A DNA stretch of 64,000 nucleotides from an uncultured Rhodospirillaceae bacterium (GCA_964530225.1 CAZHBA010000110.1:6958-70957), one strand, 5' to 3'; positions 719-53,856 are shown, counted from the first letter of the stretch. Translations and numbers: made by a program. Notes: a model not told the origin generated them from the letters alone.

Positions 719-844
719 CGGCTAAATCCTCAGCAGTTATTTGCCGAGTACTCGATCATCGGGCGCCCAGTTTACGTTTGGCCAGGCGTCAAGCCCGGCC
801 TCCTGGCTTGACAACCTCCCGCCGCCGAACCATCGTGTCGGCCT

Positions 845-940
845 TAAAGTGATGCTGGGGTGTCCCCGAATGTTCGGGGTCTGAGATTATACCCACGAAC
901 CTGATCCGGATCATGCCGGCGGAGGGAGCTATCGCAAGTC
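845..940 (+). promoter_or_regulatory. TPP (thiamine pyrophosphate, THI-box) riboswitch aptamer in the leader of the ABC operon that starts at 993
   Basis: CTGGGGTGTCCCCGAATGTTCGGGGTCTGAGATTATACCCACGAACCTGATCCGGATCATGCCGGCGGAGGGAGC matches the THI-box core (GGGGUGC..stem..CUGAGA..ACCC..GAACCUGAUCCGGAUAAUGCCGGCG.AGGGA). The P3 hairpin is CCCCGA/TCGGGG. A downstream CTCCCCC (948-954) can pair either with the aptamer 3' GGAGGG or with the SD GGGAG (982-986). Confidence 0.85.
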
Positions 941-992
941 TCGCAAACTCCCCCACCGCCCTAACCACCGGATCGCTTGCCGGGAGATAGCT

Positions 993-2132
993 ATGTCTAT
1001 TCGTTCTTCGTTGCTCGCTCTAATCGGCGCTGCTTGTTGCACGCTTGCTTTGGCGAATATCGCCAGCGCACAGTCGAAGCCAGTGACCATTCCGGTGCTG
1101 GTGCCGCTCACCGGGTTCCTGTCGCTGGAAGGCACCAGCCAGCGCAACGGCGCCGATCTGGCCCTGCGCGGAGCGGCCAATGCCGGCGTGAGTTATGCGG
1201 TCAGTGACACCGCGACCTCGCCAGAGGTGGCGGTCAACGCTCTTGAGCGCGCCATGACCGGCGACAATGTGGTCGCCGTCGTTGCCCCCATGCTGGGCAC
1301 CCAGATGCTGGCTCTGGTGCCACTTGCCGACGAGTTCAAGGTGCCCCTGGTAACAGTGTCGGGTACCGCCAAGATCACCGAGCTGGGTAGCCCCAACGTC
1401 TACCGCTTTTTCCCCGGCGACGTGGTGGTCAAGCAGGCACACGCGCGCTACGCGGTCGAAGAACTGAGCATCAAGCGGCCCGCCGTGGTCTATCAGACCA
1501 CCGCCTACGGCCAAAGCGGCCGCGCCGAGCTATCGCGTAATCTGACCGCGCTGGGCATCCCGCCGGTAGTCGAAGAGGCGATCGCGGTATCGGTCAAGGA
1601 CATGCTGCCGGTGCTGAGCAAGGTGCGTGCCGCCAACGCCGATGCGTTGCTGCTACACTTGCACGCCGGCTCGACGGCGCTGGTTATTCGCCAGGCGCGG
1701 GCCGCCGGCATCGACATTCCCATCGTCGCTGGCTCGGCCATGCACCAGCCGCAGACCGCCGCCCTGTTGGAGCCGGCCGAGCTCGCCGGCGTGTGCGCCG
1801 AAAGCGGCTCGTCGCCGATCTCCGGCGGCAACCGCGACATGGAGGACTTCGCTAAACGCTACCGCGCTGCCTTCGGCAGCGAGCCCGACGCCTTCGCGCT
1901 GGGCCAGTACGATGCGGTGCAGATGATCCTCGCGGCGATCCACGCCGGTGCGCGCACCCCCGCCACCATCCGTAGCGCCCTGGCCAACAATAGCCACGAT
2001 GGTCTGGCCATGACCTACCGATCCGACGGCAAGGGAAACATGGCCCACGACGCGGTCATCCTCTGCTACGACGGATCGGACCGCATGCCAGACATCGTCA
2101 AACGCTACGAGAACGTTACCGGTGTACGGTAG
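993..2132 (+). CDS. ABC transporter substrate-binding protein, LivJ/LivK-like (PBP type 1, Peripla_BP_6-like), with signal peptide
   Basis: The N-terminal signal is MSIRSSLLALIGAACCTLALANIASA. The body resembles branched-chain amino acid-type binding proteins. It is the first gene of a Liv-type operon. Confidence 0.85.
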   Translation: MSIRSSLLALIGAACCTLALANIASAQSKPVTIPVLVPLTGFLSLEGTSQRNGADLALRGAANAGVSYAVSDTATSPEVAVNALERAMTGDNVVAVVAPMLGTQMLALVPLADEFKVPLVTVSGTAKITELGSPNVYRFFPGDVVVKQAHARYAVEELSIKRPAVVYQTTAYGQSGRAELSRNLTALGIPPVVEEAIAVSVKDMLPVLSKVRAANADALLLHLHAGSTALVIRQARAAGIDIPIVAGSAMHQPQTAALLEPAELAGVCAESGSSPISGGNRDMEDFAKRYRAAFGSEPDAFALGQYDAVQMILAAIHAGARTPATIRSALANNSHDGLAMTYRSDGKGNMAHDAVILCYDGSDRMPDIVKRYENVTGVR

Positions 2133-2190
2133 AAATCAGCTACACACTGGAACATGATTCTTGCCGCTTCGCTCGCCCACCCCTCCCTAA

Positions 2191-2312
2191 CCCTCCCCCT
2201 CGATGGGGGGAGGGAACGTGTTGGCGGCGCAGCTAGACTTCCCCCTCCCTCCTTGCGGAGTAGGGATGGGGTAGGGGATCCGTTAAAAAGCCCTCTCCCA
2301 CAGGGAGAGGGC
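2191..2312. repeat. Cluster of three GC-rich palindromic (REP-like) hairpins between the binding-protein and permease genes
   Basis: The hairpins are CCCTCCCCC-TCGAT-GGGGGGAGGG (2191-2214), an imperfect CCCCCTCCCTCC-TTGC-GGAGTAGGGATGGGG (about 2240-2277), and GCCCTCTCC-CACA-GGGAGAGGGC (2290-2312). The last ends 3 nt before the ATG at 2316. Confidence 0.7.
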
Positions 2313-2315
2313 TAG

Positions 2316-3200
2316 ATGCTCGCAGCGCAACTAGCGCTGAACGCGCTCGCTCTGGGGGCGGCCTATGCGCTAGTGGCGCTAGGCTTCGTGCTGGTGTTGA
2401 ACGCTACAACGGCGGTGAATTTCGGCCACGGCGACACCGTCGTCGCCGGCGGCTTTCTAGCCGTCGTCCTGGCAACACTCGTCCCTGTTGACTTTGCTGT
2501 GCCCGGGCTAGTGCTGCTACCCGCCATCCTGGCGCTAATGGCGCTGTTCGGCGTCGTCATGTCGTGGCTGGTCTACCTGCCAATCCACGACCGGCCACCG
2601 GTAGTCACTTTTATTACTACCATCGCGTTCGGCATCATCGTCGCCAACGGAATTAACGCCGTGTTCGGCGGCGCACCACGCAGCGCGCCGACATTGATCG
2701 GCGGCGGCGGATTCTATGCCGGCGATCTTTTCCTCAGCCGCCAGTCGGTCGCCATTATCGCCGTCTCGGCGGTGCTGATCGCCGCCTTGTCGCTGTTACT
2801 CAACCGTACCCAAATCGGCCGCCAGTTGCGCGCCTGCGCCCAAGATCCGGAGATGGCCCAGGCCGTAGGCATCCGCCTCACCCGCATGACCATGATCACC
2901 TTCGCGCTCGCCGCCGCGCTGGCCGGCGCCGCCGGGTTACTACTTACCAACCAGTTCTTCGTCACACCGAGCGATGGCGGCATGTTGATACTCAAGACCT
3001 ACATCGCGGTGACCATCGGTGGCTGGGGCAGCTTGCGCGGGGCGGTCGCTGGGGCGATGCTAATCGCCGCGTTCGAGGTGGCGGTGGCCAGCCAGTTCTC
3101 CCAGCCGCTCGCCGAGGGTCTGCTCTACGTTACCCTGTTCGTGGTGCTGTTCTTCCGACCGCAAGGGCTGTTCGGCGAAACCGTCAGTCAGCGCGCGTGA
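2316..3200 (+). CDS. Branched-chain amino acid-type ABC transporter permease (LivH-like)
   Basis: A 294 aa polytopic membrane protein with typical LivH composition and operon position. Confidence 0.85.
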   Translation: MLAAQLALNALALGAAYALVALGFVLVLNATTAVNFGHGDTVVAGGFLAVVLATLVPVDFAVPGLVLLPAILALMALFGVVMSWLVYLPIHDRPPVVTFITTIAFGIIVANGINAVFGGAPRSAPTLIGGGGFYAGDLFLSRQSVAIIAVSAVLIAALSLLLNRTQIGRQLRACAQDPEMAQAVGIRLTRMTMITFALAAALAGAAGLLLTNQFFVTPSDGGMLILKTYIAVTIGGWGSLRGAVAGAMLIAAFEVAVASQFSQPLAEGLLYVTLFVVLFFRPQGLFGETVSQRA

Positions 3201-3207
3201 CCCGTCG

Positions 3208-4926
3208 ATGATAAAATTCCGCGTCAGTGCCGGTCCCATTCTCGCGGTCATCGCTGTGGCGATCGCGGCCTACGCGGTGCTGTTTGCCTCGTCCTACGGT
3301 CTGCGCGTACTCACCGTCTCGGGTATCTATGTGATCCTGGTGCTCGGCTATCAGTTCATCTTTGGCCACGCCGGCGCGCTAAGCCTGGCGCAAGGCGCGT
3401 TCTTTGGCCTCAGCGCCTACGTAACCGGTATTCTCGGCAGCCAACTGGGCTGGCAGTTCCCCGCCACGTTTTTCCTGTCGATCCTGATGCCCGCCCTACT
3501 CGCCGCAACTATCGCGCTGCCAGTGCTGCGGCTTGAATCCCACTACTTCGCGCTGGCCACCCTGACGCTCGGCCAGGGACTGCTGCTCATCGCGATCAAT
3601 TGGGAGGGCGTGACCGGCGGTGCCAACGGCTTACCCGGGGTGCCCGGCATCGTTTTATTCGACATCGCCGTGCCGCGCGGCCTGGCCCTACTGGGTTTCG
3701 TCTGGGGACTGGCAGCAGGCGGCGCGGCGCTCGCCTGGTGGGTGATGCACGGACTCTACGGCCTGTCTTTCACGGTTATGCGTGAGACCCCACTGGCTGC
3801 CGGCGCCCTGGGTATCGACCGGGCGGCGCTGCGCTTCGCCGCCTTCGTGCTCAGCGCCGCCTACGGCGGCGCGGCCGGGGCACTGTTCGTCCACACCGTG
3901 CGTGTAATATCGCCGGAGGTACTCGGCTTCGCCGTCATGGTGACCTGTCTGACCATGACCGTGGCCGGCGGACGCACCCGGATCGCCGGTGCGGTGATCG
4001 GCGCGGTCTTGTTGGTCCATTTACCCGAATGGTTTCGCGGCCTCGAACAGTATTACCTGGTCGCGGTGGGCGCGGTGCTGCTGCTGTTTATCCTGTTTGT
4101 TCCCGACGGTGCGGCAGCGTTTATCGTTCGCCGGCCCGCCAGGTCTGCGGACGGTCCGGCGCCGGACCGCACACCGCTTGATATCAGCCCGCAACGCACG
4201 CGCGGTCTTGAGATAAGCGGCCTGACAAAAAATTATGGTGGCATCCGCGCGCTGGCCGGGGTCGACGTTAGCGTCGCGCCGGGTGAGGTCGTCGGACTCA
4301 TCGGCCCCAACGGGTCCGGCAAAACGACCCTGGCCAATCTGGTCACCGGGCTCGACCGCCCCGACAGCGGCCAGATCGTCCTAGAGACCGATGATATCAC
4401 CGGTCTGGCGGTGCACCGGATCGCGCGGCTTGGCATCGGGCGCACCTTCCAGGCACCGCAGCTGGCGCCGTCGCTAACACTAATCGACGCCGTCGCCGCC
4501 GCCCACGCCGCCGACAATAAGCACGATTTGGCCTCGGCGCGCGACGATGCATCGGTGATCCTCGCGCGCTTTGGCCTCGCCGAGCGCGCTGGCCAGCTGT
4601 GTGCCAGCCAGCCCCACGGGGTGAAACGCAGTGCCGACCTGGCCGCGGCGCTAGCCCGCCGGCCCTCGGTGATCGTGCTTGACGAACCGGCGGCCGGGTT
4701 AACCCAGGACGAAGCTGCCACCCTTGCCGGCGTGTTGCGTGCCTACGCCGCCAACGGCGCGGCGGTGCTGGTGATCGATCACGACATGACCTTCCTGCTG
4801 CCTCTGGCCCAGCGTCTGGTCTGTCTCGATGCCGGCCAAGTCATCGCCCACGGCGCACCTGACGAGGTGATCGGCGAACCGGCGGTGGTCGCGGCCTATT
4901 TCGGTGCTGGTGGGAGCAGATCATGA
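3208..4926 (+). CDS. Fused LivM-like permease and LivG-like ATP-binding protein
   Basis: The N-terminal 310 aa or so are hydrophobic permease. The C-terminal domain has Walker A GPNGSGKTT, Q-loop RTFQ, Walker B VIVLDEP and H-loop IDHDM. The signature motif is degenerate (SQPHGVKR instead of LSYGQQRR). Confidence 0.85.
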   Translation: MIKFRVSAGPILAVIAVAIAAYAVLFASSYGLRVLTVSGIYVILVLGYQFIFGHAGALSLAQGAFFGLSAYVTGILGSQLGWQFPATFFLSILMPALLAATIALPVLRLESHYFALATLTLGQGLLLIAINWEGVTGGANGLPGVPGIVLFDIAVPRGLALLGFVWGLAAGGAALAWWVMHGLYGLSFTVMRETPLAAGALGIDRAALRFAAFVLSAAYGGAAGALFVHTVRVISPEVLGFAVMVTCLTMTVAGGRTRIAGAVIGAVLLVHLPEWFRGLEQYYLVAVGAVLLLFILFVPDGAAAFIVRRPARSADGPAPDRTPLDISPQRTRGLEISGLTKNYGGIRALAGVDVSVAPGEVVGLIGPNGSGKTTLANLVTGLDRPDSGQIVLETDDITGLAVHRIARLGIGRTFQAPQLAPSLTLIDAVAAAHAADNKHDLASARDDASVILARFGLAERAGQLCASQPHGVKRSADLAAALARRPSVIVLDEPAAGLTQDEAATLAGVLRAYAANGAAVLVIDHDMTFLLPLAQRLVCLDAGQVIAHGAPDEVIGEPAVVAAYFGAGGSRS

Positions 4927-5639
4927 GCGCGTCCCTGCTTTCAGTCGCCGGTCTGTCTATCGCCTATGGTGGCGTCGTCGCCGTTGCGCCGCTGAGCTTT
5001 ACAGTTGAGACCAGTGAATGCCTCGTCATTTTAGGCGCCAATGGCGCCGGCAAGTCGAGCCTGTTACGCGGTCTCATGGGATTGGCGCCGGCCAGCGGAG
5101 AGATAACCTTTGACGGCGCCAACATAGCCGCCTTGGCGGCTGCGGACCGGGCGCGGCACGGGATCGCTTTCGTTCCCGAGGGACGGCGGGTCTTCGCCGG
5201 CATGACGGTACGCGAAAACCTCGAGGTCGCCGCGCATGCGAATGCCATCGAGCGACAGCGGCGGTGCAATGAGGCCTATACCCTATTTCCGCAACTAGCC
5301 GCGCGCGATGGCGACGCGGCATGGCAGCTATCTGGCGGTCAGCAACAGATGCTCGCCATCGCCCGGGCAATGATGGCGCGGCCTAAACTGTTACTAATGG
5401 ATGAGCCGTCGCTCGGCCTGGCTCCCACCGTCGCCAAGGACGTGGTTGATGCGCTAGCGGCCATCGCCACCGACACCACCATCGTGCTCGCCGAGCAAAA
5501 CGCCAGCCTGGCCCTCGACATCGCCGTCCACGCCATCATCCTCGACCGTGGCCGCGTGGCCTTCACGGGCACCACAGCCGAGGTCCGCACCCACCCCGAA
5601 TTGCTCGGCCCCACCCCCATGGCCGCAGCCTCATCCTAA
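4923..5639 (+). CDS. ABC transporter ATP-binding protein (LivF-like)
   Basis: Contains Walker A GANGAGKSS, signature LSGGQQQMLAIARA and Walker B LLLMDEPS. Its start overlaps the upstream stop (ATGA). Confidence 0.9.
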   Translation: MSASLLSVAGLSIAYGGVVAVAPLSFTVETSECLVILGANGAGKSSLLRGLMGLAPASGEITFDGANIAALAAADRARHGIAFVPEGRRVFAGMTVRENLEVAAHANAIERQRRCNEAYTLFPQLAARDGDAAWQLSGGQQQMLAIARAMMARPKLLLMDEPSLGLAPTVAKDVVDALAAIATDTTIVLAEQNASLALDIAVHAIILDRGRVAFTGTTAEVRTHPELLGPTPMAAASS

Positions 5640-5724: not shown

Positions 5725-6321
5725 TTAAGGACAGCTAGCCTGGGCAAGCCAGCTGGCGGCGGCACCTTTGGTGGTCCACACCGTGACCACGACCGTTCCT
5801 TTTACCTTTAGCTGCTCGCGATAAGCGCAGCCAACCTCCAACGCGATGCCAGGAGCAAGCGCCTTGTCGGTTTCCTCGGCCAGCACCAACGACAGCCGCT
5901 CACTACTTTCGACCGACAGCTCCAACAAATCGCCGCGGGCGATTGCCCAGTCGACAAAGCTGTTCTCGGCGTCACCGAACGTGGGTGCAAGAAAATTTTT
6001 GGGCAGGCGAACGAACGAGCGGTGCACCCAGGCTTCGATATCCGGCGAATCCTCGCTGGCGCCTTTCTCTTTGATGCCGACGATACGCACCCAGCGACCC
6101 GTCTGGTCAACCGCGTTGACCTTGTTGCCACGCTTGAGGCGAGCCACGATGTCGTGACCCTCTCCGGGGCCGCCACGCACGTTGAGGTTCTTGACCCGGA
6201 CGGTGCCCTGCCAACTGCGCGCCGCTATGTGTTCATCGGCGAATACCGGCGCCGGCGTTAACGCCACGGGCAACGCGAGCGCCGCCAACAAAATCAGTAT
6301 GCCAATCCAGACGCTCTTCAT
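5725..6321 (-). CDS. Secreted SH3b-domain protein (hypothetical)
   Basis: A signal peptide MKSVWIGILILLAALALPVALTPAPVFA is followed by an SH3b-like segment (VRVKNLNVRGGPGEGHDIVARLKRGNKVNAVDQTGRWVRI). Confidence 0.55.
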   Translation of the reverse strand: MKSVWIGILILLAALALPVALTPAPVFADEHIAARSWQGTVRVKNLNVRGGPGEGHDIVARLKRGNKVNAVDQTGRWVRIVGIKEKGASEDSPDIEAWVHRSFVRLPKNFLAPTFGDAENSFVDWAIARGDLLELSVESSERLSLVLAEETDKALAPGIALEVGCAYREQLKVKGTVVVTVWTTKGAAASWLAQASCP

Positions 6322-12957: not shown

Positions 12958-14424
12958 CTAGATTAAATCGGATTTGAATATCTGGAACTTGCCGCCAGGC
13001 TCGCGCGGAATTTTGTCGACATAGATGAACTTAAAGCGAAACGGGTGGCCGAAGTTCCGTTGTAGATGGGCTGTGATGTCTGCCTCTTCCACTTCGCTAA
13101 GACGCAGATCAGCAACTAGCTTTAGGTCAATCTCCTCGGTGCTTATTTGCGTTAGCTGATACTGGCGCACGCCACCCTTTAACAGCAAAGGCTCGGCATC
13201 AAGCACCGGGAACAGCCGGTCACTCGAAGGTAGGATAACTGGCAAGCGCTCGCGGCCGATAATCCGCTCGATGACACCGAGGCCACGGCCACACGGGCAC
13301 GCCGCGCCAGTAGTCGCCCGGTCGCCCAGTTCGTAGCGGATCAGTGGCGTGGCAAAGTTGATCAGTCCCGTTACCACCACGCGGCCGACCTCTCCGGGCA
13401 CACAGGGTTGGTTACCGTCGTTGAGAACTTCCAGCAGGACCCGCTCCGCCTGAATGTGCAGATGGTCGTGTTCCGGGCACGTTAGCGCCAGAGTGGCGAG
13501 TTCTTCGCAACTGTAGTTGTCGCGCACCGGAACGCCCCAGTCACGATGACACAGGGTGCGCAGACCGGGTTCGAGAATCTCGCCCATGGAACGCACGTCG
13601 CGCAGCTGCCCTGGTTTTGCACCCACATCGAGCGAGCGATAGATCAGTTCCTGCAAAATCGAAGGGTGGCACTGCAGGTACTGAGGATCGTCCGCCAACA
13701 GCCAGTCGTAGAGCTGATTAACCGGAATACGGTTGCTATAGGTAAGCCCAGCGCCGGTGCTTCCCGCCGCCCAGGATTTGGTTTTAACCCTGCCCCGGCC
13801 GCCCGAGACCACCTTTATGGTCACATTGGTCCCTGTCAGGTCGCGCCCGAACCAGCGGTGGCCACGCAACGTCACGGCCATGTTGAACAAGCTAGAATAT
13901 TTGGTCGATTTGACGTGCACCGGCTGGCCGCTCGATCCGGTGGTATGAAGATCGAAAGCTGGACCGTGCCCGCGCGGCAATTTTGAGCTAAATAATGAAT
14001 CTTTAACATCCTGCACATCTTCGCGGGTGAGAAAGGGGATCGTGGCAAACTCTTCCGGCGTTAATCCGGCACCCGGCGCCACATCGATACTTGCCAGCCG
14101 GTCCTTATAGAACGGTGAATATTTCTGCGCGTAGCGGACCAACTCTGCGGCTTGACGCAACTGCATTGCCGCCAGGCTCTCCGCTCCCCACCATTCGGTT
14201 TGCGCCAGATATTCGGCAAGATAAGAGGCAGTAAGCTCTATTTCATCCTCAACCGGCAGCAAAAAATGGTTGGTTACCACCGGCGAGGCGGGCGGAGACT
14301 GCATAAGACCGGAGATGGTCACGATTCTACCGCCGGTCGAGGGCAGCGTCGAACCGTTAGCTTTTTGCGCCTGTCTTGCTTGGCCATGAAGGCACCCAAA
14401 TTTCGCCGAAGGGCCTTTGATCAA
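12958..14424 (-). CDS. Phenylacetate-CoA ligase-like / F390 synthetase-like adenylate-forming enzyme (PaaK/CapK family)
   Basis: Has the motif HTTGSSGQPVHV and a PaaK-like N-terminal region (YSPFYKDRL...IPFLTREDV). The start is uncertain: TTG at 14424 or ATG at 14304. Confidence 0.75.
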   Translation of the reverse strand: MIKGPSAKFGCLHGQARQAQKANGSTLPSTGGRIVTISGLMQSPPASPVVTNHFLLPVEDEIELTASYLAEYLAQTEWWGAESLAAMQLRQAAELVRYAQKYSPFYKDRLASIDVAPGAGLTPEEFATIPFLTREDVQDVKDSLFSSKLPRGHGPAFDLHTTGSSGQPVHVKSTKYSSLFNMAVTLRGHRWFGRDLTGTNVTIKVVSGGRGRVKTKSWAAGSTGAGLTYSNRIPVNQLYDWLLADDPQYLQCHPSILQELIYRSLDVGAKPGQLRDVRSMGEILEPGLRTLCHRDWGVPVRDNYSCEELATLALTCPEHDHLHIQAERVLLEVLNDGNQPCVPGEVGRVVVTGLINFATPLIRYELGDRATTGAACPCGRGLGVIERIIGRERLPVILPSSDRLFPVLDAEPLLLKGGVRQYQLTQISTEEIDLKLVADLRLSEVEEADITAHLQRNFGHPFRFKFIYVDKIPREPGGKFQIFKSDLI

Positions 14425-23823: not shown

Positions 23824-24122
23824 GCGACCGATACCTCTTCGACAGTAACTCGTGGGACATTGTTCGGCTCAAGGTATAACGAAGCGCCCGCACGATTTCA
23901 CCATTTGTCTCAAGTGCCCCGGTTCGACACCGAATCGGGATTTACAATTGGTAATTATTTTAGGCCTCGGTGATAATTTTTCGTCGTAGCCGATTAGGTT
24001 ACGTGCCGTTTATTGCGTTGTCACACGGGCCTGATCGAGCACATGGACAGATCGGTCAACCGACCTTACTTTTCACGCCAATGATTCGGCATTTGGCCCC
24101 ACCGGCCCTTACGGAGGAAAAG

Positions 24123-27100
24123 ATGGCGTTAACAGCTGTCAGTCTCGACGACAAATATACGCTGGAGTCGGGCAGGGTTTATTTAACCGGCACCCAGGCG
24201 CTGGTCCGCCTGCCGATGATGCAACGTCAACGGGACGTGAAAGCCGGCCTCAATACCGGCTGTTATGTCACTGGGTATCGCGGCTCGCCGCTGGGCGGCG
24301 TCGACCAGCAGATGCAACGCGCCCAGCAATTTCTCGAAAACCACCACATTGTGTTCCGACCCGGCGTCAATGAAGATCTCGCCGCCACTGCCATCTGGGG
24401 TAGCCAGCAGCTCAACCTGTTTCCCAACGCCAATTACGACGGCGTATTCGGCATGTGGTACGGTAAGGGTCCTGGCGTCGACCGCTCGGGTGATGTTTTC
24501 AAGCACGGTAATCTGGCCGGCGCGTCGCCGAACGGTGGCGTGTTGCTCCTCTCTGGCGACGACCATACCTGTAAATCCTCGACCACCGCGCATCAATCAG
24601 AATTCGGCTTTATCGACGCTATGATCCCGGTGCTCAACCCCGCCGGGGTGCAGGATTTCCTTGATCTCGGCCTCTATGGCTGGGCGATGAGCCGCTATTC
24701 CGGCTGCTGGGTGGGGTTCAAAACCATCGCCGAGACTGTCGACAGTTCGGCTTCGGTGCATATAGACCCGTACCGTGTCGATATTGTCACGCCGACCGAT
24801 TTCCCGATGCCCGAAGGCAGGCTCAACATTCGCTGGCCCGACGAGTTCCTCGCCCAGGAGGAACGCCACCATCGCCACAAACTGTACGCTGCCCTGGCTT
24901 TTGCGCGGGCCAACAATCTCGACAAGGCAATCATCGACGGCCCGAAGCGGCGCCTTGGAATCGTCACCACTGGTAAATCCTACCTCGACGTGCGCCAGGC
25001 GCTCGACGACCTGGGTATCGACGAGGTACAGGCCAAGGGCATCGGTATCAGCCTGTACAAGGTCGGCATGTCGTGGCCGCTCGAGCGCGAAGGTATGCGC
25101 GAATTCGCCGAAGGCCTCGAGGAAATTCTCGTGGTCGAGGAAAAGCGTGCACTGATCGAAAACCAGATCAAGGAACAGCTCTACAACTGGCGTCCCGATG
25201 TGCGGCCGCACGTTCTCGGCAAGTTCGACGAAAGCGGCGAGTGGATTCTGCCATCGTCGGGCGAGCTGACCCCAGCGCGCATTGCCCAGGTGATCGCCGA
25301 CCGCCTCGGCCGTTTCCACACTTCGCCGGCGATCGACGAACGCCTGGCGTTTCTTGCCCGCAAGGAAGCGTCGTTGGCGCAACAGCCGGAGTCACTCAAA
25401 CGCACCCCCTACTTCTGCCCGGGCTGCCCTCATAACACGTCGACTCAGGTGCCCGAAGGTAGCCGTGCCCTGGCCGGTATCGGCTGCCATTTCATGGCGC
25501 TGTGGATGGACCGTAGCACCGCCACTTTTACCCAAATGGGGGGCGAAGGTGCTAGCTGGGTCGGCCAAGCACCGTTCACTAGCGACAAACACGTGTTCGT
25601 CAATCTCGGCGACGGCACCTACTATCATTCTGGCCATCTGGCGATCCGCCAGGCGGTCGCCGCCAACGTCAACGTGACCTACAAAATCCTCTTCAACGAC
25701 GCCGTCGCCATGACCGGCGGACAGTCGTTCGATGGCCCCCTGTCGGTGGACCTCATCGCCCGCCAGGTCGCCGCCGAAGGCGTGGCAAAGGTCGTCGTCG
25801 TTTCCGACGAACCCGACAAATATCCCCTCGGTACCGAATTCCCCCATGGCACCACCGTGCATCACCGTGACGAGTTGGATTCCGTTCAGCGCAGCCTGCG
25901 CGACTGGCCGGGTACGACGGTGCTGATCTACGACCAGACCTGCGCCGCCGAGAAACGCCGCCGGCGCAAACGTAACCTGTTCCCCAACCCGCCTAAGCGG
26001 GTAATGATTAACGAAGCGGTGTGCGAGGGCTGCGGCGATTGTTCGGAGAAATCGAACTGCCTGTCGGTGGTGCCGATCGATACCGAGTTCGGCCGCAAGC
26101 GTGCCATCGACCAGTCGAGCTGCAACAAGGACTATTCCTGTGTCAACGGCTTCTGCCCCAGTTTTGTCACCGTTCATGGCGGCCAGTTGAAGCAACCTAA
26201 GACGGTCTCCGCTGGCGGTGCCGAGGGAGCGTTCAACGATGCCGCGCTACCGACCCCCAACTTGCCGCCGCTCGATACGCCCTACGGCATTATCGTCACC
26301 GGTATCGGGGGCACCGGCGTCGTCACCATCGGTGCTCTGCTCGGCATGGCAGCGCACATCGAGGGCAAGGGTGCTTCGGTGCTTGACATGGCTGGTCTCG
26401 CCCAGAAAGGCGGCGCTGTGGTCAGCCATATTCGCATCGGCACCAGTCCCGATGACCTGCACGCGGTGCGCATCGCCGCCGGCAGCGCCAACACGGTTAT
26501 CGGCTGCGATCTCATGGTCGCCGCCAGCCCCGACGTTCTGGCGAAGATGCAACCGGGCGTTACCCGAGCTGTGATCAATAGCCACGAGACCATCACCGGC
26601 GACTTCACCCGCAAACCAGACATGAACCTGATGGGTGCGGAGATGGTTAAGATCATCGATATCGCGACCGGCGATGGCGCCGCTGATTTCGTCGAAGGAT
26701 CGCGCCTAGCGACCGCCCTGCTCGGCGATTCCATCGCCACCAATCTGTTCATGCTCGGCGTCGCCTGGCAGAAGGGACTGGTGCCCATCTCCGCCGAGGC
26801 TTTGGCGCAGGCCATCGAGCTCAACGGCGTTGCGGTCGATTTCAACAAGCACGCCTTCCTGTGGGGTCGCCGCACCGTTGCCGACCGGGCGAAGGTCGAA
26901 AAAGCGGCAGCTCCGGTGACACCACTACGTCTGCAGGAGCCTGATATCGCAACGACGCTGGAAGACATCGTCGCGTTCCGCATTCGCGCACTGACCGCCT
27001 ATCAAAACGAGACCTGTGCACGGAGCTACAAGGACTTCGTCGTCAAAGTTCAAAAGGCAGAAGCCGAGCGCGCCAAAGGCCTTAGCGGCCTCGCCGACGC

Positions 27101-27617
27101 GGTGGCGCGCTATTACTTCAAGCTGCTCGCCTATAAGGACGAGTACGAGGTGGCGCGCCTCTATACTAGCGGCGCTTTCACCCAACGGCTAAACGACCAG
27201 TTCGAGGGCAATTTCAAACTAAAATTCCATATGGTGCCGCCACTGTTTGCCAAGTACGACCTAGAGACTGGCCAACAGCTCAAGAAAGAATTCGGGCCAT
27301 GGATGATGTTGGCCTTAGGGCTATTGGCGCGGCTGCGTTTCCTGCGCGGCAGTGCGGTGGACGTCTTCGGCTATTCCCGGGAACGCAAGCTCGAACGCCA
27401 ACTCATCGCCAACTACGAGACAACCATCGACGAATTGCTCGGTAAGCTCAACCACAACAACCACGAACTGGCTGTGGCTATTGCAACGATCCCCGAGCAC
27501 ATCCGCGGATTCGGCCACATCAAGGACGAGCATCTGGAAAAAGCCAAAGCCGAAGAAGAAGCGCTGCTGCGAGCCTTCCGCAGCCCTAACGCGCCGACGG
27601 CCAAGGCGGCCGAGTAG
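24123..27617 (+). CDS. Indolepyruvate ferredoxin oxidoreductase family protein (fused alpha/beta)
   Basis: The start was chosen at ATG 24123, after SD GGAGGA, giving MALTAVSLDDKYTLESGRVYLTGTQALVRL. The protein has a TPP-binding region and ferredoxin-like Cys clusters (CEGCGDCSEKSNC, CNKDYSCVNGFCP). Confidence 0.9.
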   Translation: MALTAVSLDDKYTLESGRVYLTGTQALVRLPMMQRQRDVKAGLNTGCYVTGYRGSPLGGVDQQMQRAQQFLENHHIVFRPGVNEDLAATAIWGSQQLNLFPNANYDGVFGMWYGKGPGVDRSGDVFKHGNLAGASPNGGVLLLSGDDHTCKSSTTAHQSEFGFIDAMIPVLNPAGVQDFLDLGLYGWAMSRYSGCWVGFKTIAETVDSSASVHIDPYRVDIVTPTDFPMPEGRLNIRWPDEFLAQEERHHRHKLYAALAFARANNLDKAIIDGPKRRLGIVTTGKSYLDVRQALDDLGIDEVQAKGIGISLYKVGMSWPLEREGMREFAEGLEEILVVEEKRALIENQIKEQLYNWRPDVRPHVLGKFDESGEWILPSSGELTPARIAQVIADRLGRFHTSPAIDERLAFLARKEASLAQQPESLKRTPYFCPGCPHNTSTQVPEGSRALAGIGCHFMALWMDRSTATFTQMGGEGASWVGQAPFTSDKHVFVNLGDGTYYHSGHLAIRQAVAANVNVTYKILFNDAVAMTGGQSFDGPLSVDLIARQVAAEGVAKVVVVSDEPDKYPLGTEFPHGTTVHHRDELDSVQRSLRDWPGTTVLIYDQTCAAEKRRRRKRNLFPNPPKRVMINEAVCEGCGDCSEKSNCLSVVPIDTEFGRKRAIDQSSCNKDYSCVNGFCPSFVTVHGGQLKQPKTVSAGGAEGAFNDAALPTPNLPPLDTPYGIIVTGIGGTGVVTIGALLGMAAHIEGKGASVLDMAGLAQKGGAVVSHIRIGTSPDDLHAVRIAAGSANTVIGCDLMVAASPDVLAKMQPGVTRAVINSHETITGDFTRKPDMNLMGAEMVKIIDIATGDGAADFVEGSRLATALLGDSIATNLFMLGVAWQKGLVPISAEALAQAIELNGVAVDFNKHAFLWGRRTVADRAKVEKAAAPVTPLRLQEPDIATTLEDIVAFRIRALTAYQNETCARSYKDFVVKVQKAEAERAKGLSGLADAVARYYFKLLAYKDEYEVARLYTSGAFTQRLNDQFEGNFKLKFHMVPPLFAKYDLETGQQLKKEFGPWMMLALGLLARLRFLRGSAVDVFGYSRERKLERQLIANYETTIDELLGKLNHNNHELAVAIATIPEHIRGFGHIKDEHLEKAKAEEEALLRAFRSPNAPTAKAAE

Positions 27618-53241: not shown

Positions 53242-53856
53242 CTAGGTTTCGTTGGTTTCGCCAGTAGAGCGAAGCCCAAGAACCAGCCCGGCGGTTTCCT
53301 CCATACGGCGCAAATTGCGGTCTAGCACCGCCATCGTCCGCGCCATGTCGGGGTCTTCATCGGAAAACCATGTGCGCTGGGTCGCCAGCCAAACGCCTTC
53401 AATAGCATGGATGCGTGCCAGCCCGCGCAGCCCCTTGGTCGACACGCCAACCGCCTCAAGCATTCGGCCAAACGAGCAATGCGCCTGGGGAATCAACGTA
53501 ACTAGAGTAACCGGATCGCGGGGCAGATCGTGGCAAAGAGCGACCAACGCCGTGCGGACTGGCAATAGAACTTCGAAGCGCCGCATCAGTACATCGAACA
53601 GACGATCATGCATGCTGACTTCCACTTCGCCTTCTGCCTCGTCTTGGCTTTCGAGCACCGCGAGGTCGGTACATCGGACAAAGGCGTTGAGCACCGCCGA
53701 TTTCGTCGGTGTCAGCCGGTAGACTTCATCGGCATCAAGTTTGGCTGCCACCACGATATCGTCGAGGGTTATTGCCGACCAGCCGCGCTCGACCGACAAT
53801 TTTAATGCGGCGTCGACAATGCGCTCCTGCTTGTCTTTTTGCTGTTTTGTCGCCAT
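53242..53856 (-). CDS. TetR/AcrR-family transcriptional regulator (probable)
   Basis: Has an N-terminal HTH-like segment (ERIVDAALKLSVERGWSAITLDDIVVAAKL) and an all-helical remainder. Confidence 0.6.
   Translation of the reverse strand: MATKQQKDKQERIVDAALKLSVERGWSAITLDDIVVAAKLDADEVYRLTPTKSAVLNAFVRCTDLAVLESQDEAEGEVEVSMHDRLFDVLMRRFEVLLPVRTALVALCHDLPRDPVTLVTLIPQAHCSFGRMLEAVGVSTKGLRGLARIHAIEGVWLATQRTWFSDEDPDMARTMAVLDRNLRRMEETAGLVLGLRSTGETNET

Follow-up and report, generated by a model that had tools for sequence, protein, structure and literature searches.

A TPP riboswitch ahead of a Liv-type ABC importer operon in alphaproteobacteria: a candidate uptake system for a vitamin B1 vitamer

We analyzed a 64,000-nucleotide (64-kb) stretch of DNA from an uncultured Rhodospirillaceae bacterium (GCA_964530225.1, CAZHBA010000110.1:6958-70957), which we call the window. 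Near its start, an aptamer of the thiamine pyrophosphate (TPP) riboswitch class lies directly ahead of four co-directional open reading frames (ORFs) at 993-5639, which make up an operon for an ABC importer of the HAAT/Liv (Liv/Urt) type. The original prediction, drawn from the sequence of this stretch, had described a near-textbook THI-box at about 848-930 followed by LivJ-like, LivH-like, LivM-LivG fusion and LivF subunits, and had put the system forward as a candidate importer of thiamine or a thiamine precursor. The aptamer, its helices and the genes are arranged as follows.

846-945, plus strand: TPP aptamer (THI-box), identified by Rfam RF00059, orthologous aptamers and covariation
About 849-856/927-935, plus strand: aptamer helix P1
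857-894, plus strand: aptamer helices P2/P3
900-925, plus strand: aptamer helices P4/P5
993-2132, plus strand: periplasmic substrate-binding protein (SBP), 379 amino acids (Pfam Peripla_BP_6, E 2.7e-51)
2316-3200, plus strand: LivH/UrtB-like permease, 294 amino acids (Pfam BPD_transp_2, E 1.5e-36)
3208-4926, plus strand: LivM-LivG fusion, 572 amino acids (Pfam BPD_transp_2, ABC_tran and BCA_ABC_TP_C)
4923-5639, plus strand: LivF/UrtE-like ATPase, 238 amino acids (Pfam ABC_tran, E 2.2e-30)

Because the next gene (5725-6321) is convergent, 5639 marks the end of the operon. The SBP carries a Sec signal peptide and has the type I periplasmic binding protein (PBP; LivJ-like) fold, and its Pfam matches are to type I families only (Peripla_BP_6, ANF_receptor and Peripla_BP_5). 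In the fusion protein, a LivM-like permease occupies residues from about 32-293 and a LivG/UrtD-like ATPase residues from about 334-568, and the last gene starts within the end of the fusion gene, the two sharing 4 nt. The membrane and ATPase subunits scored best against the NCBIfam equivalogs of the UrtABCDE system, although all of these scores fell below cutoff: UrtB, the top match of the permease, reached 135.5 bits (cutoff 250.3), UrtD 173.7 bits (cutoff 304.1) and UrtE, on 4923-5639, 206 bits (cutoff 285.8). With a type I SBP, two BPD_transp_2 permeases and two ABC ATPases in a single operon, the system belongs to the HAAT family (Transporter Classification, TC, 3.A.1.4), and the ORFs and their Pfam matches bear out the predicted subunit set. 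Related genome loci preserve the four-gene order, including the fusion, wherever the contig is long enough; the permease-ATPase fusion itself is present in 64 of 81 clustered loci (80 genome loci plus the window), most of the rest ending before the gene.

An Rfam scan of both strands of the 64 kb found RF00059, the TPP riboswitch family, at 846-945 on the plus strand with 57.2 bits (gathering score 54.3; E 1.4e-8), covering model positions 1-105 of 105 and missing only the optional P3a stem in the alignment. No other Rfam family rose above its gathering score on either strand of the window. The THI-box motifs GGGGTG (857-862), CTGAGA (881-886), ACCC (891-894) and ACCTGATCCGGATCATGCCGGCGGAGGGA (899-927) lie where the original prediction had placed them, and the aptamer ends 47 nt before the ATG at 993. 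The margin over the gathering score is only 3 bits; the call is nonetheless secure because the element recurs before orthologous genes at 54-75 bits and with compensatory changes. These comparisons confirm the riboswitch as genuine, with TPP binding and an effect on expression as its predicted properties.

Relatives of the SBP are widespread. A scan of one genome per GTDB species returned at least 234 genomes with an SBP relative, and the best 80 loci were analyzed; a scan of metagenomes, seeded with more distant family members, added 80 further loci. At least 120 protein matches were listed at 67-100% identity, and their sources give them only the names 'ABC transporter substrate-binding protein' and 'branched-chain amino acid transport system substrate-binding protein.' The best 80 genome loci include at least 15 named Azospirillum species, Nisaea, and metagenome-assembled genomes of marine and soil alphaproteobacteria.

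Whether orthologous Liv-type operons keep the riboswitch was one of the checks proposed with the original prediction, and most do. Two of the 80 genome loci lacked upstream DNA, and in 73 of the 78 that could be scored the SBP gene is immediately preceded by an aptamer. A THI-box regular expression matched in 70 of the 80 loci, in each case directly before the SBP gene and nowhere else in these loci. The boxes of L031 and L068 deviate slightly from the pattern and pass Rfam, and L020 has a visible box in which ACCC has become ACTC and which falls below the Rfam threshold; neither the pattern nor Rfam found an aptamer in the genome loci L034, L040, L047, L049 and L063. All 20 of the pattern-positive genome loci that were scanned with Rfam reached the gathering score (54.4-75.3 bits). 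Among the metagenome loci, 48 of 79 have an aptamer before the SBP gene (44 by pattern and four by Rfam), and about five of the 31 loci without a box have too little upstream DNA to judge. The aptamer is thus present in 122 of the 152 family members with sufficient upstream DNA, from the 160 placed in a tree.

The aptamers also show the marks of a maintained RNA structure. RNAalifold recovered P2, P3, P4 and P5 from 26 aptamers, with 7 of 17 pairs changed on both sides; one P5 pair, for example, is C-G in 14 aptamers and U-A in 12, and P2, P3 and P5 covary. The helices of the RF00059 model thus carry compensatory changes. P1 was not recovered in this alignment, though by eye its complementary strands differ between clades. 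Outside the aptamer, leaders of different clades are almost unalignable, and this turnover around a retained element argues that the aptamer has been kept by selection. In a neighbor-joining tree of the 160 members, the 122 riboswitch-positive members fill two large blocks, and the 30 negative members comprise one block of 27, the two most distant outgroup sequences and one singleton. Since riboswitch presence follows the protein tree, the association is an ancient clade-level trait rather than a chance juxtaposition. These data bear directly on the idea that the arrangement is meaningless, the aptamer being either a relic or part of another transcript. The slim margin of the window score and the ambiguous thermodynamics of the switch (see below) would fit that idea, but retention across two large clades despite leader turnover, the helix covariation, and an aptamer that is oriented like the operon, closely follows a promoter-like site and is separated from the ATG by no other gene make it very improbable.

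The rest of the leader contains three features relevant to how such a switch might work, the last of them the Shine-Dalgarno (SD) sequence of the SBP gene.

808-836, plus strand: promoter-like site (TTGACA at 808-813, a 17-nt spacer, CATCGT at 831-836)
947-960, plus strand: pyrimidine tract ACUCCCCCACCGCC, a candidate switching (anti-aptamer/anti-SD) segment
982-986, plus strand: SD sequence GGGAG, 6 nt before the ATG at 993

The promoter-like site would start a transcript a few bases before the aptamer, and the same TTGAC(A/T)-N17-CATCGT layout precedes the aptamer in L020 and L031. The site was not called by a consensus scan, its -10 hexamer matching at only 3 of 6 positions. A scan of the window leader found no terminator-like site between the aptamer and the ATG. 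A promoter, the aptamer, a linker of 65-115 nt, an SD 6-13 nt before the ATG and the lack of a terminator make up the layout, which is the usual one for Gram-negative translational TPP switches; in the leaders compared, a GGAG-type SD was seen at most 16 nt upstream of the chosen ATG.

The original prediction had further proposed that the CTCCCCC tract at 948-954 pairs alternatively with the aptamer 3' strand or with the SD, and only the first of these pairings found support. The longer segment ACUCCCCCACCGCC (947-960) is complementary to GGCGGAGGGAG (918-928), the 3' strand of P4/P5, with an RNAduplex energy of -18.7 kcal/mol. In the unconstrained minimum-free-energy fold of the window leader these two segments are paired, and the 5' strand GAUCCGGA (902-909) is paired with CCGGAUCG (968-975). 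A CUCC...CCGCC tract complementary to the aptamer 3' strand occurs in 63 of 63 distinct leaders, and across this set the energy of the duplex between linker and 3' strand beats that of shuffled linkers (mean z -1.29). The complementarity of linker to SD in these 63 leaders was no better than for shuffled linkers (mean z -0.35), and energy models of the window leader left the SD mostly paired with and without an enforced aptamer; both results speak against the proposed switch. Thermodynamic ON/OFF modeling of the window leader gave no clean picture, with the SD largely paired in both states, and was set aside. Besides the CUCC...CCGCC tract, there is a second conserved alternative pairing: the linker sequence CCGGAUC(A) at 968-975 is a near copy of the aptamer P5 strand and loop (UCCGGAUCAUG), can pair with GAUCCGG of the aptamer, and is also found in the leaders of L001, L003, L007 and L008.

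A more compact arrangement is seen in L036, L037, L041 and L053, where the ATG lies 8-9 nt past the AGGGAG of the aptamer. Judging by these leaders, the P4 3' strand of the aptamer itself would serve as the SD and its P1 3' strand as the spacer, with no separate expression platform. With the SD and spacer inside the aptamer, closure of the aptamer must bury them, and this layout is the clearest pointer to an OFF logic, in which TPP would repress the operon. In L135 the aptamer (969-1074) extends into the start of the gene match, which makes the same layout probable there. A fold of the L041 leader that pairs the P1 5' strand with the coding region had an unremarkable energy (z -0.87) and was not used as evidence. 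We propose that at high TPP the aptamer would close and block ribosome access to the binding-protein gene, a form of translational control, and that at low TPP the downstream CUCC...CCGCC tract would capture the aptamer 3' strand, freeing the start region so that the operon can be translated.

We turn to what the operon might transport. Of the four subunits, the SBP shows the highest conservation in 59 of 61 complete operons, with median identities to the window of 66% for the SBP, 61% for the LivH-like permease, 54% for the LivM-LivG fusion and 51% for the LivF-like ATPase. This reverses the usual pattern of ABC systems, in which the ATPases are most conserved, and it points to a strong constraint on ligand recognition.

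An AlphaFold2 model of the SBP, built from a 20-sequence alignment, had a mean pLDDT (predicted local distance difference test) score of 87. Its Foldseek neighbors were type I binding proteins of the LivJ/LivK kind, headed by 4gnr and 3td9 (template modeling score about 0.8, 22-26% identity); next came family members whose ligands are amino acids, a 2-oxo acid, hydroxybenzoates, urea, acetamide or pyroglutamate. No solved structure was closer to the SBP than 3td9 (E 1e-27), and none had a thiamine-type ligand. These neighbors bind many different small ligands, and the search for a solved homolog with a telling ligand was set aside.

The SBP is 19-21% identical to E. coli LivJ and LivK. We mapped its pocket by aligning the SBP family with E. 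coli livJ and livK, and repeated the mapping with more distant relatives, both at about 20% identity. The numbering obtained in this way reproduces what we take to be the LivJ pocket, namely Tyr18, Leu77, Cys78, Ser79, Ala100, Ala101, Thr102, Tyr150, Tyr202 and Glu226, of which Ser79, Thr102, Tyr150, Tyr202 and Glu226 presumably clamp the alpha-amino and alpha-carboxylate groups of the ligand. Thr102 and Tyr150 are retained in the SBP family as T125 and Y172. Tyr18 is replaced by an invariant E46, Ser79 by an invariant G102 and Tyr202 by an invariant H224. Glu226 corresponds in the first alignment to a variable position (Q/E/S/T/A) beside the six-residue block GSAMHQ, which is an insertion relative to LivJ, and in the second to an invariant Ser248, so that the acid is kept in neither. 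Three of the five presumed clamp positions are therefore replaced in alignments at about 20% identity, and the SBP lacks a LivJ-type clamp as we define it. The NCBIfam LivJ model PRK15404 likewise scored only 56 bits on the SBP (cutoff 477), placing it outside that family, and the SBP matched no urea-binding model in NCBIfam.

In place of the LivJ residues, all riboswitch-linked members among the 160 loci surveyed have essentially the same residues at 20 mapped positions. This signature consists of E46; (M/I)(L/F)G(T/S)Q at 100-104; SGT at 123-125; Y172 and Q174; (H/Q)222 and H224; and GSA(M/L)HQP at 247-253. It is still kept where identity to the window SBP drops to 59%. The invariant blocks follow beta-strands of the AlphaFold2 model, and would sit at the cleft-lining loops of type I binding proteins. 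Clustering at 50% reduced the family to about six full-length representatives, and beyond the family, scores fall to about 250 bits, for relatives of about 30-34% identity in which the signature is absent.

The pocket weighs on one explanation in which the cargo is unrelated to thiamine. LivJ/LivK-LivHMGF (LIV-I, TC 3.A.1.4.1) resembles our system in transporter family, subunit set, SBP fold and the residues Thr102 and Tyr150, and differs in Tyr18, Ser79, Tyr202 and Glu226, in having LivM and LivG as separate proteins, and in its lack of the TPP-riboswitch control seen here. The operon might import something that a TPP-dependent pathway yields, either as an end product or on the way to it, for instance branched-chain amino acids or their 2-oxo acids, during a shortage of TPP in which acetolactate synthase and the 2-oxoacid dehydrogenases stall. 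The shared family and fold, the retained T125 and Y172, and the existence of a HAAT protein with 3-methyl-2-oxopentanoate (4obb) all fit such cofactor sparing. Riboswitch-free paralogs even adjoin IlvD/Edd-type dehydratase genes, L107 (4190-5902) and L115 (3112-5796) lying directly behind one, but these have a diverged pocket signature and no riboswitch. The exchange of Ser79 and Tyr202 for an invariant Gly and His and of Glu226 for a non-acidic residue, together with a LivJ-model score far under the cutoff, also argues against this explanation, and we know of no precedent for a TPP riboswitch controlling amino-acid uptake. We consider cofactor sparing improbable.

Two known thiamine systems are closer in regulation than in sequence. 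ThiBPQ of E. coli and Salmonella (TC 3.A.1.19) is also an SBP-dependent ABC importer encoded in an operon behind a TPP riboswitch, and its expected role, scavenging vitamin B1 at low TPP, is similar. However, ThiB/TbpA, which we take to belong to the type II binding proteins and to another Pfam family, is unlike the type I SBP here, and our system has BPD_transp_2 rather than BPD_transp_1 permeases and two ATPase subunits, one of them fused to a permease. ThiXYZ, with its binding protein ThiY, is a TPP-riboswitch-regulated ABC importer of a thiamine moiety (TC 3.A.1.17), namely HMP (4-amino-5-hydroxymethyl-2-methylpyrimidine) or FAMP (N-formyl-4-amino-5-aminomethyl-2-methylpyrimidine). ThiY, presumably an NMT1/THI5-like type II binding protein, has no sequence or fold relation to the SBP at 993-2132; import of a thiamine moiety is the role that we hold most likely for the operon at 993-5639. 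Within the HAAT family, the Urt, AmiC/amide and Rhodopseudomonas palustris aromatic-acid systems illustrate how the scaffold has been re-used for ligands other than amino acids. In Pfam and NCBIfam, which returned only PBP1/HAAT matches, the SBP showed no homology to ThiBPQ, ThiXYZ, YkoEDC, ThiT, CytX, ThiU/V/W, PnuT, Omr1 or ThiPerm.

The published lists of TPP-regulated and B1 transporters that we examined agree with the view, held in the original prediction, that the known systems do not include Liv-type ones. The orthologue list of TPP-regulated transporters in Sun 2013 (PMC3766115) has no Liv-type entry, and Azospirillum is absent from its genome tables. Marine B1 surveys of 2024 and 2025 use thiB, thiT, thiY, thiV, cytX, ykoF, ThiPerm and omr1, with no Liv-type gene, and no ABC system of Liv type is listed in the 2024 OarX paper. 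We found no description of a TPP-controlled Liv-type system in the open literature; RegPrecise, SEED and papers that are not openly available lay outside this scope, so prior notice is possible. PGAP names the operon orthologs of A. thermophilum either generically, the fusion being an 'ATP-binding protein/permease,' or as parts of a branched-chain amino acid transporter. What would be new here is riboswitch-controlled B1 uptake by a transporter family and an SBP fold not previously tied to thiamine.

Genes behind TPP riboswitches belong, almost without exception, to thiamine synthesis, salvage or transport (Sun 2013, PMC3766115). Because of this regularity, and because the LivJ clamp residues are lost, we consider it likely that the cargo is thiamine-related. 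The candidate thiamine or thiamine-precursor importer of the original prediction therefore gains support from the kept riboswitch, the departure from the LivJ clamp and the published transporter lists. We propose that the operon encodes an SBP-dependent HAAT-family importer that would be turned off by TPP via the riboswitch at 846-945; the direction of transport would be inward.

As to the compound itself, our best guess is a thiamine moiety or breakdown product, with intact thiamine less likely and an amino acid least likely. Candidates are HMP, FAMP, 4-amino-5-aminomethyl-2-methylpyrimidine (AmMP), 4-methyl-5-(2-hydroxyethyl)thiazole (HET) and its 2-carboxylate (cHET), and we give such a moiety, as opposed to intact thiamine, about an even chance. 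It is favored because ligands of the HAAT scaffold are typically small. Alphaproteobacteria, moreover, presumably carry ThiBPQ as a rule. Were the cargo intact thiamine (or thiamine monophosphate or TPP), the system would be a functional analog of ThiBPQ on a different binding-protein fold. The riboswitch logic would then be the same as for thiBPQ, and the SBP is unusually conserved, as expected of a high-affinity vitamin receptor; some HAAT proteins, too, take ligands of about 200 Da (phenylpyruvate in 4dqd, hydroxybenzoates). Against this, the thiamine cation has a mass of 265 Da, which its phosphates exceed, and the ligands of the structural neighbors are small (amino acids, urea, acetamide, C7-C9 aromatic acids). 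We regard uptake of intact thiamine as rather doubtful.

Returning to a thiamine moiety, we can name a candidate, though tentatively. cHET is a small heteroaromatic carboxylate, a kind of ligand often bound by HAAT proteins; T125 and Y172 match what we take to be the carboxylate contacts of LivJ, and the residues that presumably hold the amino group are lost. The SBP could conceivably act as receptor in the high-affinity uptake of a B1 vitamer that lacks a known bacterial transporter, with cHET the most attractive ligand and a degradation product such as AmMP or FAMP as another. High-affinity transport systems for the thiazole precursor (cHET) have been described as being of 'unknown sequence identity' (Paerl et al. 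2018, PMC5899164).

Several observations count against a thiamine-related cargo or against our choice among such cargoes. The predicted substrate binding and transport take regulon membership as their ground, and the preference for a moiety draws on just two points, the small ligands of HAAT proteins and the presumed prevalence of ThiBPQ. No thi genes were found in the 64-kb window, either in the neighborhood of the operon or in the other 58 kb, and no thiamine gene adjoins the operon among the conserved neighbors in the 160 related loci. The riboswitch is missing from a sister clade of about 27 loci, some of them with the pocket signature intact, and this shows that the SBP can be useful without TPP control and that the scaffold is not tied to TPP in every lineage.

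Besides the five genome loci named above, about 25 metagenome loci belong to these riboswitch-free relatives. Those with the full signature include L040, L049, L063, L124 and L147; others have H222Q, T125S, and GSAI(H/G)QP or GSGLAQP in place of the last block. An Rfam scan found no other family upstream of these riboswitch-free relatives, and cargo or regulator may differ in this clade. No riboswitch was found either in a more distant, P0123-type clade (L083-L085, 45-48% identity).

Guessing the substrate from neighboring thiamine genes was likewise abandoned, as there were none in the window or among conserved neighbors. The operon is instead flanked by genes for an SH3-domain protein and pyrE in the clade of the window, and by an upstream EamA/DMT gene in Azospirillum.

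The majority of bacteria in aquatic habitats are auxotrophic for vitamin B1, and the exchange of B1 and its fragments takes place at picomolar concentrations. Gene surveys that use fixed transporter lists score genomes with other systems as having no uptake route, and the SBP family occurs in at least 234 species-level genomes and in many soil and sea metagenomes. If the cargo is a B1 vitamer, the SBP would be a fourth binding-protein scaffold in thiamine biology, the widespread mis-annotation as a generic or 'branched-chain amino acid' system would be corrected, and the operon would become a candidate for transport activities seen in physiological work to which no gene is assigned. Orthologs are present in culturable and genetically tractable Azospirillum, which makes the question directly testable.

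Between the SBP and permease genes of the window lies one further feature of the operon.

2133-2315, plus strand: intergenic insert of 183 nt with two G/C-rich hairpins, at 2191-2214 and 2290-2312

The insert folds at -90.8 kcal/mol (z -3.59), and its hairpins, CCCTCCCCCTCGATGGGGGGAGGG and GCCCTCTCCCACAGGGAGAGGGC, are motifs unique within the window. In most related loci the gap between the two genes is a few to about 40 nt, which places the insert outside the conserved operon. It looks like a REP/MITE-like intergenic element, and could raise the ratio of SBP to permease expression by stabilizing the upstream mRNA.

Elsewhere in the window, and unrelated to the operon, a 1215-amino-acid ORF at 23970-27617 (plus strand) has POR and DUF6537 domains and looks like an indolepyruvate/2-oxoacid:ferredoxin oxidoreductase-like fusion. 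We take this enzyme class to be TPP-dependent, which would make it a TPP consumer encoded in the window. Two ORFs on the minus strand, at 12958-14424 (488 amino acids) and 53242-53856 (204 amino acids), were without a Pfam match at E <= 1e-5 and are either real genes outside the known families or, perhaps, over-called in GC-rich DNA.

Downstream of the operon in Azospirillum thermophilum (L082, 13490-14755), and at the equivalent place in 22 Azospirillum loci (for example, L057, 12580-13971), there is an ORF for a conserved, secreted, low-complexity protein of 420-460 amino acids, rich in Ala, Pro and Gly and with no Pfam match. An AT-richer gap of ~120 nt sets it off from the operon, and it is probably a separate transcription unit.

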